NCBI GenBank assembly: GCA_948465565.1
Contig: CAOJXR010000008.1
Span: 778-64,777 of the forward strand
DNA from: an uncultured Clostridium sp.
Lineage (GTDB): Bacteria > Bacillota > Clostridia > TANB77 > CAG-508
DNA: 64,000 nucleotides
Direction: 5' to 3'
This document shows, piece by piece, positions 26,809 to 31,643 of the stretch. Below the pieces are notes generated by a model that saw nothing but the letters and a program-made list of their open reading frames with translations, was not told the origin of the DNA and did not search any database. Position numbers and translations under genes: made by a program. The stretch's first letter is position 1. Every line of letters begins with the position of its first letter.

Positions 26809-27675
26809 TTATATCCATTCAGAAATTATTGAATCTGGTATTTCTAAATCTCCTCTGCCGTTTCCCATATCTATTTTATTTTCTTCACTTATTCCGTGGT
26901 AATCGCTTCCTCCAGAAATAAGAATTTTTCTATTCTTGCATATCTTTAAAAGTTTCATTGTTTGTTCTTTTGTAAAGTTAGAATAATAACATTCAATTCC
27001 ATCTATTTCAAAGTTCTCCAAAATATAATTTAATATTTTATCCGAATTATGTTTATATTCAAATATGTGTGGTATAAATACTTTTCCGTTTGCTCTTCTT
27101 ATTAATTTAATTATACTTTCTATGTCAGGAAGAATATCATTCATATCTATAAAGAAAGGACTTTCTGGGTCTGACATATATTTTCTATATAATACTAAGC
27201 TATCTTCCCATGCATCATTATCAATGAATTTTCTATTATATTCATCTTTTGTTATTGCTTCATGTAGATATTGTGATGCGTATTTATCTGGTGAATAACT
27301 TTCTATAAAGTCAGATGGTATTTTAATATCAAATTTTAATAATTTTTTGTATAGTCTTTTTATTTCTAAATAATTTCTATCTTCTGGCGAAAGATATATC
27401 CCTTTTAAACTTTCTTGCATTATTTCTGGATTTATTTTGTATCCTAATATTTCAATAGGTATATCTAAAGCTTTAGAATTAAGTTCTATTCCAGTAATTA
27501 TTTTTCCACCATAATATTCTTTAATATTGATTTGTTTCAATTCTTGATAAGCAGTACATGTATTATGGTCTGTAATAGAAATACATGTTAGTTTTTTCTT
27601 TTTAGCCTTTTTCAATATTTCTACTACACTATCTTTTCCATCAGAATGTGTTGAGTGCATATGTAAATCTATCAC
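26809..27675 (-). CDS. PHP-domain metal-dependent phosphoesterase (TrpH/YciV-like)
   Basis: MIDLHMHSTHSDG...ISITDHNT N-terminal His motif, later IPHIFEY and GGSDYHG. 288 aa. Confidence 0.8.
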   Translation of the reverse strand: MIDLHMHSTHSDGKDSVVEILKKAKKKKLTCISITDHNTCTAYQELKQINIKEYYGGKIITGIELNSKALDIPIEILGYKINPEIMQESLKGIYLSPEDRNYLEIKRLYKKLLKFDIKIPSDFIESYSPDKYASQYLHEAITKDEYNRKFIDNDAWEDSLVLYRKYMSDPESPFFIDMNDILPDIESIIKLIRRANGKVFIPHIFEYKHNSDKILNYILENFEIDGIECYYSNFTKEQTMKLLKICKNRKILISGGSDYHGISEENKIDMGNGRGDLEIPDSIISEWI

Positions 27676-27689
27676 TTATTCTCTCCATT

Positions 27690-28280
27690 TTAATTTCTAT
27701 TTAATATTTTATTTAATTCAACTTCTGCTTTTTTTATAAAACAGTCATTAAACTCTAACGGTAATCCCTCTGCCTTTAAACATTCTTTTATTTTTTCAAT
27801 TGTATCAAATTCTGGGTTGTTTTCTTCTGTTTCTGATTCAATCATTTTGTCCCCATTTTTTACATCTTTTGTAGTAATATTTTTTCCATCTTTTTGGTAT
27901 CCACAATCTTCCTCTGTAATGTTCATTATCTTTTTATATCCTATTGTGCTCATGAAATTCTCTGCATCATCACAATCAAGAACTTTTAATCTTGTGCTTT
28001 TTTGTTCAACAATTTCTCCCTTTTCGTTAAATTTTTTCATTTTATATGACATATCTCTTCTTGTCTCGTTTTTTGCTATATCTTCAACTTTTCTAATAAT
28101 TATTGCTTTTGATATAATATCTCTTGTAGATAATTTCTCAATTTCTAAATTCTCTGGTACCATAAATGCATCATATAAAATATAATGATCTGTTTGTTTA
28201 TAACCTTTTTCTTCTAATGTTTTTTTGAACTCGTTAATATCTCCTTTAATTCTTAGAGTTACTTCATTACTTTTCTTCAT
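27690..28280 (-). CDS. CYTH-like (triphosphate tunnel metalloenzyme / class IV cyclase-like) protein, divergent
   Basis: 196 aa. An alternating beta-strand pattern (EVTLRIK, IIIRKV, MSYKMK, STRLKV, KMIESE) resembles the CYTH barrel. However, the N-terminal ExExK signature is degenerate (E-x-T-x-R). Assignment is by motif pattern only. Confidence 0.4.
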   Translation of the reverse strand: MKKSNEVTLRIKGDINEFKKTLEEKGYKQTDHYILYDAFMVPENLEIEKLSTRDIISKAIIIRKVEDIAKNETRRDMSYKMKKFNEKGEIVEQKSTRLKVLDCDDAENFMSTIGYKKIMNITEEDCGYQKDGKNITTKDVKNGDKMIESETEENNPEFDTIEKIKECLKAEGLPLEFNDCFIKKAEVELNKILNRN

Positions 28281-28291
28281 ATTTATACCTC

Positions 28292-29173
28292 CTATATTTC
28301 AATGCCATCATATCGTAAAGCTCTTGTATTGTCAAACTTTAATGCCATTCTCTGAAGTGCTGGAATATCTATAGGACTTTCTGAATAGTCCATTATTATT
28401 CCATTACTAAATACTACATCTTTTGGGTAATTTCCTGAATTTTCTAAAGCAATTCTTTTTCCACTCGTTGATTTTAATCCTTGTAATGATTTTGATGAAT
28501 AATACTTTAGTATTCCTTTTGCAAATTCCATAAACTCATCTTTACTCATTCTGTTCTCTCTAACCCATGTTGCTTGTACACTCTGTTCATTTTCACCAGG
28601 CATTAAACTTTTAAACCTTATTAAGTCAATATTGGGATGTGCCTGTAATAATTCTTCTAAATCTTGTGCACAAGTGCTACTTTCTAAATTTCTTGTCAAT
28701 CCTATGTCAAACTTTATTTTCTTTGCTTTTTGAAACTCACTACTTTGAGTATAATCTCTTGCATATCCTAGTACTTCCATATCTTTTTGTGGATCTATTG
28801 CTACTCTTAGCATATCAAATTCCACATCGTCAACTAGTTGATTAAATAAATCAAACTTATCTTTTTCCCAAAATATATTTCCAGATGTATGTACTCTTAA
28901 TGTGTCAAATAAATCTTCGTGAAGTTTGATTATAGACGCTAACTCTTTTAATGTTTCTATCCCATATAATGATGGTTCTCCATTTCCACTTAATACAATT
29001 CTTTCAAATCTAATACCATTAATTCTCATTACATCTAAGATTCTTGAAAGTTCTGCAAAATGCTCTGCTTCTGAATCATTAAATTTTCTATTATTTTTTG
29101 CTATACAAAATGGACATGCCTTATCACATTTATAACTTGGTAAAACTATAGTTAAATTTCCTAGTCTATACAT
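28292..29173 (-). CDS. radical SAM enzyme (possibly viperin-like)
   Basis: C16-x3-C20-x2-C23 (YKCDKACPFCIAK) and a SAM-binding GGE-type motif, LSGNGEPSL. No SPASM or extra Cys cluster. 293 aa. C-terminal LIRFKSLMPGENE is reminiscent of viperin RWK...GEN. Confidence 0.85.
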   Translation of the reverse strand: MYRLGNLTIVLPSYKCDKACPFCIAKNNRKFNDSEAEHFAELSRILDVMRINGIRFERIVLSGNGEPSLYGIETLKELASIIKLHEDLFDTLRVHTSGNIFWEKDKFDLFNQLVDDVEFDMLRVAIDPQKDMEVLGYARDYTQSSEFQKAKKIKFDIGLTRNLESSTCAQDLEELLQAHPNIDLIRFKSLMPGENEQSVQATWVRENRMSKDEFMEFAKGILKYYSSKSLQGLKSTSGKRIALENSGNYPKDVVFSNGIIMDYSESPIDIPALQRMALKFDNTRALRYDGIEI

Positions 29174-29186
29174 TTTCTACTCCTTA

Positions 29187-29893
29187 TTATTTACTAACTT
29201 CTTCTTTTCCTTTTTTTCTATCTTGTTCTGTAATCGTATATTGCAAGATGTGTTGTTTTACAAGTTCTGTGGTCTCTTCTGTACTTCTTTCTGTTGTATC
29301 TATTATTTTAGTAAAAGGATGTGTTTTCCAAAATCCTGCTGCTGATTCTTTTTCATCTCTTAATCTTAATCTTTCTCGTGCTTCCGCTATTGAAGTTGCT
29401 TCCAATTCAGATTTTCTCTCTGCTCTTTTAAAAAAGGTTGCTTTCAAAAATATATGATTTGATATGTCATTACATACTGAAAATGGTCTTCTAGCATTAA
29501 GTAATACTGGGCTTTCTTGTCTTAATTATTTAACGAATCGCCAAAGCATCCACCTACATCAACAGTTAATTTGTTCATTTCTGGAGTATATAATTCGTCT
29601 TCTTTAAAAAAGTGATTCCTAATTGATATTTCGCAAACGCCATTTCTTTTTCTGTATCCTAAATTTAATTGTTGCATAAGTTCATCTATTTTCGACTGCT
29701 ACACAATTTGTTGTAAATCATTTATTGTCATTCTCCCACTTTTAATCAAGCAAAATGTTATCGGTCTAAAAAATGCTCCAAAATCAAAATAAGTTAGATT
29801 TGGAATTTCCTCTCGTAATTTCTCTGATACTGATGACTTTCCCGCTCCTGGCATTCCACTTATTGCTATTATTGAAAACTTTTTTTCTTTCAT
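29187..29893 (-). pseudogene. cytidylate kinase (Cmk)-like P-loop kinase, disrupted by an in-frame TAG and a frameshift
   Basis: N-terminal part has IAISGMPGAGKSS, then a TAG at 29699-29701. The same frame continues (QSKIDELMQQ...VDVGGCFGDSLNN) to a stop near 29525. The remainder (LRQESPVLLNARRPFSV...HIFLKATFFKRAERK...IIDTTERSTEETTELV) is in the -1 frame. Confidence 0.8.
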
Positions 29894-29922: not shown

Positions 29923-29971
29923 AAAAAAAGGCATAAAAGACTAACTAAAATTGTTAATCTTTTGTGCCTTT
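29923..29971 (-). terminator. rho-independent terminator after the alarmone synthetase gene
   Basis: 19-bp stem AAAGGCATAAAAGACTAAC/GTTAATCTTTTGTGCCTTT (one wobble, one mismatch), followed on the minus strand by T7. Confidence 0.75.
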
Positions 29972-30027
29972 TCATTTTGCTTTATATTATTCCTTTTTTA
30001 TATTTTTGTCAATTGTTTTTCAATATT

Positions 30028-30690
30028 TTATACATTGCATTTTATATCTAACATTTTATCATCTAATTTAGAAATTATATTTGCACATTTTATTAATTCT
30101 TTAGACGCTTTTTTACTTGTATCTTTTTTATATTTTAATTTATGTTCTAAACTTGCCCAAAAGTCCATTGCAACAGTTCTTATTTGCACTTCTACTTTTA
30201 CATAGATTGTTTGTTCTGAAAAGGCAACTGGAACATTTATAATCAAATGATAACTTGAATATCCACTTTGTTTAGGCTTTGTTATATAATCTTTTCTTTC
30301 TAGAATCTCAATATCTTGAAAACCTTCTAATATATCAACAAGTTTAAATACGTCATCTTTAAAAGAACATACTATTCGTATTCCTGCAATATCTTTTATT
30401 TCTTCAATTAGATTTTCGTATGTAAGTTCTAAATTCTTTTTGTTCATTTTCTCTATAATGCTTTCTGGTGATTTTATCCTTTCCGTTATATGGTCTATTG
30501 GGTTGTAATCATAAAAAGCTTTAAATTCTTCATTTAATACATCTAGCTTTGTTCTTAAAGTTTTCATTGCTGATGTATATATAATCATTAACTTTTCAAA
30601 AGCATTATCTTTTCTATCTATTTTTCCTCCTACTTCAAGCATATTATTTACTTGAATGAGTTCTACTTCCTTTTTATCTTTTTTAATCAT
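30028..30690 (-). CDS. small alarmone synthetase (RelQ/RelP-type GTP pyrophosphokinase)
   Basis: 220 aa. RelA/SpoT synthetase motifs IAGIRIVCSF, SGYSSYHLII and VEVQIRTVAMDFWASLEHKLKYK. No hydrolase domain. Confidence 0.88.
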   Translation of the reverse strand: MIKKDKKEVELIQVNNMLEVGGKIDRKDNAFEKLMIIYTSAMKTLRTKLDVLNEEFKAFYDYNPIDHITERIKSPESIIEKMNKKNLELTYENLIEEIKDIAGIRIVCSFKDDVFKLVDILEGFQDIEILERKDYITKPKQSGYSSYHLIINVPVAFSEQTIYVKVEVQIRTVAMDFWASLEHKLKYKKDTSKKASKELIKCANIISKLDDKMLDIKCNV

Positions 30691-30812: not shown

Positions 30813-31643
30813 TTAAAAATTATCGAAATCTATTCCTAGTTTTTCAAAATAACTTTTTATTTTCGTCATATTTCTATATGTACCATTTTTTACTTCATGT
30901 TCAAATTCTTCATGTTCAAAATAGTCTTTTTCTAGCTCTTTATCAATATTATAAGGTACTCTTACAAATTGCAAAGAAAAACTATTACTATATTCCTTCT
31001 CTCCATAGTTTCCTTCTAATAAGCAATAATTTGCTTGTCTAATTTCTTCTATTTTACTATCTTTATCTGGGTTTCTAATCAAGCAAAAACTATTTCCAAC
31101 ACTTCCTGCATTTGCTATTGTTTTATTATATATTTTATCCATATATTGATGATGTATATGTCCATATATAACAACATCTGCTATTTTATCTGATATTGTT
31201 CTATCACTTGGTAAAAACATTTTATATTTATCTTCAATAGAATCTTGGCTAATCAATACTTTGTTATCAGCTTCTGGTGAAGAATGAAATATTCTTACTA
31301 GACTACCACTTAAATAAAACTCATATCAATATGGTAAATTACTTAGATATTCTCTTTCCTCTTCTGATAACATTCCATGTATTTTTTCCCATCTATTTCT
31401 TTCATATTCTGATTTACTTGCTATTTCTGATAGTGGTTCTGAAAAATGTCTATCACAATTTCCTCTTACAACTACATCACATTTTTGTTTTACAAGTTCA
31501 ATACATTCTTTGCTATGTGGTCCTTTTGCTATGGTGTCTCCTAAACAAAATATTTTTTCTACTCCTTTGTTTTTTGTATCATTTATGACTGCTTTTAGTG
31601 CTTCTAAATTCCCATGTACATCAGAAATTATTGCAATTTTCAT
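30813..31643 (-). pseudogene. calcineurin-like metallophosphoesterase interrupted by one in-frame TGA
   Basis: The N-terminal ORF (MKIAIISDVHGN, GDTIAKGP, GNCD) ends ...SNLPY-TGA at 31326-31328. The same frame continues YEFYLSGSLVRIFHSSP...VIYGHIHHQ. It would be a single 276-codon gene without the stop. Confidence 0.8.

Follow-up and report, generated by a model that had tools for sequence, protein, structure and literature searches.

A small radical SAM family beside viperin and MoaA, found in a candidate nucleotide-modifying cassette of gut Clostridia

Introduction

MoaA and viperin are the two radical S-adenosylmethionine (SAM) families known to act on nucleoside triphosphates (NTPs), and work on radical chemistry with these substrates takes them as its reference. 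The products of viperin are natural antiviral chain terminators, and nucleoside analogues made by bacteria, such as 4'-thiothymidine, are leads for antibiotics. The present work deals with a radical SAM gene located at 28292..29173, on the minus strand, of a stretch of 64,000 nucleotides from an uncultured Clostridium sp. (GenBank assembly GCA_948465565.1, contig CAOJXR010000008.1, positions 778 to 64,777 of the forward strand). This whole stretch is called the window, and positions are those of the window unless another locus is named. An earlier note, made from the letters of this DNA alone, had described the product of the gene as sharing features with viperin beyond the cysteine motif of the iron-sulfur cluster.

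Two other described systems resemble this locus in their gene content. In Photorhabdus, the 4'-thiothymidine cluster thmABC encodes three proteins: a radical SAM enzyme, a kinase acting on nucleosides and a nucleoside triphosphatase, the last of which confers self-resistance (PMC12691670). The Ophion anti-jumbo-phage system combines OpnA, a radical SAM protein related to viperin and distinct from it, with the PHP-domain protein OpnB and the phosphoribosyltransferase (PRTase) OpnC, and a transcription-blocking nucleotide has been proposed as its product (bioRxiv 10.1101/2025.09.30.679545). Judged by gene content, the locus studied here follows the cluster logic of thmABC (radical SAM enzyme, kinase and triphosphatase), but it occurs in gut Clostridia and Bacilli instead of Enterobacterales, and its phosphohydrolases are of the CYTH and PHP types. 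With Ophion it has in common that a radical SAM gene and a PHP gene occur together, whereas our locus has no PRTase and Ophion has neither a kinase nor a CYTH protein.

The protein proved to be a radical SAM enzyme that is not a viperin and that belongs to a small, unnamed, separate and uncharacterised family. With modest confidence, we favor the interpretation that it is a single-cluster enzyme of a lineage that stands by itself next to MoaA and viperin, and that it is the core of a mobile cassette of nucleotide enzymes whose product is a modified nucleotide or nucleoside; what we infer is the class of substrate, the sequence of steps, the chemistry and the biological role.

Results

A Radical SAM Protein With a Single Cluster

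The open reading frame encodes a protein of 293 amino acids (aa). Its segment YKCDKACPFCIAK holds the cysteines of a single [4Fe-4S] site in the arrangement C16-x3-C20-x2-C23, with F22 preceding the last of them, and LSGNGEPSL, at residues 61-69, contains the SAM motif SGNGEP. Both an aromatic residue preceding the final Cys and a motif of the GGE type are generic to radical SAM enzymes and not specific to viperin. The protein has four cysteines in total (C16, C20, C23 and C169), of which only the first three were conserved among 33 homologues; hence, the family carries no SPASM, twitch or other auxiliary cluster. The two motifs, the length of the protein and its lack of SPASM or twitch cysteines had all been pointed out in the earlier note and were confirmed here.

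The three cluster cysteines and SGNGEP were invariant across the homologues of the family. Two further elements were found at the predicted barrel strands beta5 (K154-x-D156) and beta6 (R186-F-K188...G193-E-N), the latter within HPNIDLIRFKSLMPGENEQS, which corresponds to residues 179-198. K188 was present in all 33 homologues and position 154 was occupied by Lys or Arg in 32 of the 33, while R186 was kept in 28, G193 in 26, E194 in 25 and N195 in 19.

The structure predicted by AlphaFold2 from the family alignment was confident (pLDDT 88.2, pTM 0.87) and showed strands alternating with helices, as in the barrel of radical SAM enzymes, and behind them a small beta region at the C-terminus. When this model was compared with known structures by Foldseek, ranks 1-22 were all radical SAM structures, led in the PDB by SuiB, GDGT-MAS, MoaA and NifB; the match to MoaA had a TMq of 0.57 over 299-310 columns. 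The matches obtained in the PDB and in BFVD were generic radical SAM matches alone, with TM values not exceeding 0.6. The Pfam radical SAM model PF04055 scored 24 bits on the protein, against a cut-off of 29.5. The cluster motif, the SAM motif of the GGE type and the partial TIM-barrel fold together place the protein in the radical SAM superfamily.

A Position Outside the Viperins

The NCBIfam model of prokaryotic viperin (pVip), NF038283 (viperin_w_prok), scored 21.5 bits, where its cut-off is 180, and matched residues 15-104 only. On the same model a genuine pVip reached 223 bits, and unrelated NirJ-like radical SAM proteins from Bacillota, used as a control, reached 75-90 bits. These control proteins came from a scan of 400 genomes of Bacillota, among which no true viperin was found, all matches being NirJ-like proteins. 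The pVip models of PADLOC matched the radical SAM protein with E values of about 1e-4 (1.6e-4). No curated family of Pfam, NCBIfam or PADLOC passed its cut-off, the matches being restricted to the N-terminal core, and the MoaA model TIGR02666 was not among the matches at E<=0.01 in the NCBIfam scan. Sequence searches of the PDB found neither viperin nor MoaA, whether the query was the protein alone or the profile of its family; viperin chains are contained in the copy of the PDB that was searched. Viperin was also absent from the top 50 Foldseek matches of the model in the PDB.

The C-terminal signature of viperin (SYxMxDPxGR, followed by an RGG-type motif) had no equivalent in the family consensus. 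In a viperin alignment seeded from a real pVip of a deltaproteobacterial metagenome-assembled genome, the invariant columns were Y225, M227, D229, P230, G232, R233, R271 and G273, and the hhalign match between the two families ended at residue 220 of our protein. A phylogenetic tree was built from 12 members of the family, 15 of a sister group named A3, 11 true viperins, 8 MoaA, 5 NirJ-like proteins and OpnA. The family formed its own clade (support 99) and joined A3 (99), and the viperins (100) and MoaA (99) formed separate clades; the order among these lineages was not resolved, and OpnA appeared as a long, unplaced branch. The phylogeny with MoaA that the earlier note had suggested as a check thus left the family outside the viperin clade. 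Taken together, the scores, the separate clade, the fold matches and the absent C-terminal signature contradicted membership in the viperin family and, by these tests, the protein is not a viperin.

Remote Homology to Viperin and MoaA

The likeness to viperin noticed earlier nevertheless stood at the level of remote profile homology. Alignment of the family profile with hhalign gave 93.8% for the viperins (E 1.7e-7, 171 columns, score 58.6), 83.5% for MoaA (E 8.3e-6, score 47.9) and 31.6% for the NirJ-like proteins (E 5e-4), so viperin was the best partner among the outside families tested. As a scale, viperin and MoaA aligned with each other at 99.5% (8e-23).

In the alignment with the viperins, R186, F187 and K188 stood opposite k-W-K, and GEN stood opposite GEN over a gap of 4 residues. 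The correspondence between the R-aromatic-K...GEN elements of both proteins, including the difference of 4 residues in spacing, had been proposed in the earlier note and was reproduced here. Since the profile alignment recovers the correspondence, this resemblance exceeds chance. The same beta6 strand, however, aligned with MoaA without any gap (RFKSLMPGE...W opposite RFIExMPIG...W), and K154-x-D156 paired both with the invariant K-x-N of viperin and with PVKiN of MoaA. The alignment of the C-terminal segment to viperin thus held, but, to judge from these alignments, the HPNIDLIRFKSLMPGENEQS-type segment is as similar to MoaA as to viperin and marks a wider MoaA/viperin-like group rather than viperin itself. 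Motif-level calls of "viperin-like" proteins need to be qualified in this sense, given that the motif is real, yet common to MoaA, and marks a wider clade. In the published structures of viperin and MoaA, the positions aligned with K154, R186 and K188 are contacts of the triphosphate; the radical SAM protein likely binds a nucleotide.

Size and Distribution of the Family

A word-indexed search returned 54 relatives, and when the family profile was run exhaustively against 1.84 billion proteins, only 84 cluster representatives had E<=1e-10. The named sources were all uncultured Clostridia and Bacilli of the gut or rumen type, apart from a few outliers. One of the loci (L046, 4289-6173), from Candidatus Uhrbacteria, carried two adjacent paralogues of the family in tandem.

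The sister group A3 is a fringe of proteins of 270-300 aa that aligned with the family at 99.85% (hhalign). It lay below all curated cut-offs and found MoaA (5e-17) and the solved viperins (5e-14) when searched against the PDB. Its genomic contexts were heterogeneous, comprising a NAD-salvage cluster and phage-like contigs. In the former (L060, 2218-8395), the A3 gene stood among pncB, pncA, an aminotransferase-like gene, nadM-Nudix and the gene of an NrtR regulator, which together make up a NAD salvage regulon; the phage-like contigs (L061 and L063) carried other A3 members.

The Cassette in the Window

The radical SAM gene is the second of four genes on the minus strand that are tightly packed, with gaps of 11-14 nt, in the order Cmk-like kinase, radical SAM protein, CYTH protein and PHP protein.

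The gene that follows it (27690..28280) encodes a protein of 196 aa without any Pfam match and with a weak match to cyaB in the NCBIfam scan. Its AlphaFold2 model (pLDDT 93.4) matched best the triphosphate tunnel metalloenzyme of Sulfolobus (7ns9; Foldseek E 1.7e-9, TM 0.67-0.73), and it was assigned to the CYTH/triphosphate tunnel metalloenzyme fold on this basis. The residues E148-x-E150, R63, K80 and K82 were invariant, and the N-terminal motif was E6-x-T8-x-[KR]10 in place of ExExK. The last gene (26809..27675) encodes a PHP-domain phosphoesterase of 288 aa that resembles TrpH/RNase RNM and 3',5'-bisphosphate phosphatases; it scored 40.3 bits with Pfam PHP, 80 with the NCBIfam RNaseRnm model and 77 with the nucleoside bisphosphate phosphatase model, all below the curated cut-offs.

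At the head of the cassette (29187..29893), a pseudogene of a Cmk-like nucleoside monophosphate (NMP) kinase was recognised. It was matched in tblastn and blastn by the intact kinase (243 aa) of a related locus (L033), with 83% nucleotide identity, and its N-terminal fragment matched Pfam Cytidylate_kin. Two lesions were found in the assembled sequence: an in-frame TAG at 29699-29701, where the intact relative has TGG, and a 25-bp deletion with a frameshift near 29527/29528. One TAG in the kinase was also seen by the genome search. The housekeeping cmk gene was kept elsewhere in the genome (259 bits). A second Cmk-like gene lies outside the window (G000:C1:253531-254178), with a sub-threshold score of 73.5 bits.

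Comparison with a relative of 85% identity, which has the intact kinase, gave a dN/dS of 0.11 in the radical SAM gene; in the CYTH and PHP genes the values were 0.07 and 0.14. This indicates that these three genes were under purifying selection over most of the divergence.

The Cassette in Other Genomes

The set of kinase, radical SAM, CYTH and PHP genes recurred in different chromosomal settings of Clostridia, where the PHP gene was the last of the cassette. In several loci the CYTH gene came directly after the radical SAM gene, and elsewhere it lay one gene further on, after a gene of the metallo-beta-lactamase (MBL) fold. Variants of the set were also found. In one of them a CYTH-Cmk fusion stood at the head; in Bacilli, a Cmk-radical SAM fusion was followed by an MBL-fold gene similar to Apyc1/RNase Z and then by the CYTH gene; another had the order kinase, radical SAM, NUDIX, CYTH; and in a further one the radical SAM protein was fused to a helical domain similar to MazG/PRA-PH. 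A branch with about 33-35% identity (L012, L045 and L051) had a conserved set made up, in this order, of a PnuC-type transporter gene, a gene resembling those of nucleoside 2-deoxyribosyltransferases, the radical SAM gene and the gene of an NrtR-like Nudix regulator; in L012 a Ham1 NTP pyrophosphatase came next. Every recurrent partner handles nucleotides or nucleosides, and this is the strongest argument for a nucleotide as the substrate. No description of this cassette was found in the literature.

The MazG/PRA-PH-like domain was C-terminal in a distant branch from uncultured Bacilli (L047, 4998-6678; also L048 and L049). Downstream of it, a stand-alone seryl-tRNA-synthetase-like catalytic core of 230 aa was encoded (73.5 bits with the serS model), a neighbor that hints at a product of the aminoacyl-nucleoside type.

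A Variable Slot in the Chromosome

The radical SAM gene was present in only one of the 22 genomes of the genus, being absent from 21 sister species, and one further carrier belonged to another family of the order. The cassette occupies a variable slot between the gene of a small alarmone synthetase (30028-30690, minus strand; intact and of the RelQ/YjbM type) and the S10 operon. The order of the flanks (feoB, membrane protein, alarmone synthetase, S10 operon) was kept in three congeners. In one of them (G005, locus L073) the slot was empty and measured 345 bp, and in the other two (G003 and G013; L071 3558-5240 and L072 3445-5076) it held an unrelated gene of 543-560 aa on the opposite strand. 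Since its content differs among congeners, the slot behaves as a local hotspot for accessory genes. The cassette has a patchy and insertion-like distribution and is probably horizontally mobile.

Discussion

Proposed Function of the Cassette

In view of the gene content of the cassette and the alignments to viperin and MoaA, we consider the following sequence of steps the most likely. The kinase would raise a nucleoside monophosphate, probably of a pyrimidine, towards the di- or triphosphate. The radical SAM enzyme would then grip the phosphates of this nucleotide through three residues located where barrel strands 5 and 6 end (K154, R186 and K188), and the 5'-deoxyadenosyl radical would abstract a hydrogen of the ribose, giving a modified nucleotide. 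Finally, the CYTH and PHP proteins (elsewhere MBL, NUDIX, MazG or Ham1 proteins) would strip or open the phosphates, which would either release the modified nucleoside or its monophosphate, or keep the triphosphate analogue from harming the cell that makes it. The product would be used in conflict with phages or rival bacteria, or possibly in salvage. A more speculative extension, which we regard as possible and put forward tentatively, is that the family represents a third lineage of radical SAM enzymes acting on NTPs, making a modified nucleotide not known before, and that the cassette is a self-contained unit of the type "phosphorylate, radicalise, dephosphorylate". A nucleoside analogue would be exported or deployed by it, phages or competitors in the gut being the targets, and self-protection would be a second task of the CYTH and PHP proteins. 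A compact and separate family with likely phosphate-binding residues, its own kinase and two phosphohydrolases gives direct and testable access to new chemistry on nucleotides in gut Firmicutes that are uncultured.

Several observations weigh against this proposal, in part or as a whole. The link to viperin and MoaA is a weak homology (58.6 and 47.9 in score) that covers residues 14-220 only and comes from a shallow profile (an effective sequence number, Neff, of 2.7), and the phosphate-binding roles suggested for K154, R186 and K188 derive from alignment to triphosphate contacts of viperin and MoaA. The CYTH protein does not have the second Glu of ExExK, so that its status as a standard triphosphatase may be doubtful. 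The kinase is dead in the source genome, and the cassette may be decaying there. The NrtR and PnuC neighbors of the distant branches and the NAD-salvage context of one A3 member point to the metabolism of pyridine nucleotides. Moreover, a role in defense is weakened by two negative results: no match to the family was found in the phage and plasmid collections, and the loci inspected were not in recognisable defense islands.

Alternative Explanations

The protein could be a true, highly divergent prokaryotic viperin converting CTP, UTP or GTP into an anti-phage chain terminator of the 3'-deoxy-3',4'-didehydro-NTP type, with the kinase feeding it substrate as CMPK2 does for viperin (RSAD2). Several points speak for it: both are single-cluster radical SAM enzymes of about 290 aa, the strand-5 motif K-x-[DN] and, past strand 6, [RK]-aromatic-K...GEN can be aligned (as they can to MoaA in the case of the same segments), hhalign has viperin as its best outside partner with k-W-K...GEN opposite our R-F-K...GEN, the pVip models of PADLOC match weakly, an NMP kinase is regularly adjacent or fused, and the distribution of both is patchy and accessory. 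On the other hand, the score far below the cut-off of the viperin model, the separate clade and the lack of viperin among the leading fold matches are not expected of a viperin. The spacer in the family is also 4 residues shorter, and its C-terminal region does not carry the viperin signature. The kinase is moreover Cmk-type and N-terminal, whereas the fusions of pVip carry a kinase of the Tmk type (PF02223; Tmk/CMPK2-type), so that the two kinds of fusion seem to have arisen by convergence. The CYTH and PHP genes are additions of the cassette that are not known from pVip systems. We consider this explanation improbable. A MoaA-like cyclase or rearranging enzyme, which would form a C-C bond on a purine NTP and give a cofactor-like or signaling product, appeared slightly less probable still. 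MoaA was among the best fold matches, its strand-6 segment aligned without gaps, its strand-5 K-x-[DN] was shared, and the fold of the CYTH neighbor includes class IV nucleotide cyclases. MoaA (GTP 3',8-cyclase) requires, however, a C-terminal [4Fe-4S] cluster for the binding of GTP, and the family, with three conserved Cys, has no second cluster, is about 40 residues shorter and has no molybdopterin genes nearby; its kinase partner is of the cytidylate type, which suggests a pyrimidine substrate, and MoaA models were not among the NCBIfam matches at E<=0.01.

A role in metabolism or salvage, in which the enzyme would convert an imported nucleoside or a pyridine nucleotide (for example, nicotinamide riboside or a derivative of NMN) in gut anaerobes of small genome, is unlikely, yet it deserves more weight than either of the preceding explanations. 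It would account for the PnuC-type, deoxyribosyltransferase-like and NrtR-like genes flanking distant members and for the A3 member among pncA, pncB, nadM-Nudix and NrtR, and it would fit the reduced host genomes (1.1-2 Mb) and the housekeeping genes that neighbor the cassette. The absence of the gene from 21 of 22 congeners would be odd for a core salvage step, however; the main clade has neither a transporter nor a regulator, and other A3 members lie in phage-like contigs. The least credible explanation, to which we give hardly any weight, is that the protein is a glycyl-radical activase or a peptide- or protein-modifying maturase and that the nucleotide genes nearby are coincidental. It would explain the weak matches to NrdG2, HxsC and SuiB-type proteins and the label "organic radical activating enzyme" that one source gives to a homologue, but the enzyme itself occurs in fusions with kinase and MazG domains, and SPASM, twitch and RRE domains are absent. 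In addition, neither a glycyl-radical enzyme gene nor a precursor peptide gene was conserved nearby in any locus inspected, and this candidate function was rejected. A modified nucleotide or nucleoside made by a mobile cassette thus remains the interpretation that we prefer.

Membership in Ophion was also considered and rejected. The homology of the family to OpnA was weak (hhalign 66%, E 5.5e-5), the PHP protein matched the PHP protein of Ophion by BLASTP over 38 N-terminal residues only, comprising the metal motif, and there was no PRTase.

Other Features of the Region

A hairpin of 20 pairs with one bulged base, followed by a U-run, was predicted on the minus strand at 29925..29973, between the stop codon of the alarmone synthetase and the start codon of the kinase (folding energy of the RNA -25.1 kcal/mol, z = -5.9). 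It may terminate the upstream gene or serve the cassette as a leader or attenuator. Hexamers of the sigma-70 type (TTGACA-17-TAATAT) were found upstream of the cassette at 29984..30012 on the same strand; they are a match to the consensus only, and such matches were no more numerous in the region than in shuffled sequences. These were the only good promoter-like hexamers and they lie upstream of the hairpin (30012-29984). Transcription of the cassette by read-through or under attenuation would both be possible.

Adjoining the alarmone synthetase gene, a calcineurin-like metallophosphoesterase gene (30813-31643, minus strand) was split into open reading frames of 105 and 147 aa. This split gene and the broken kinase represent two interrupted genes within 2.5 kb.

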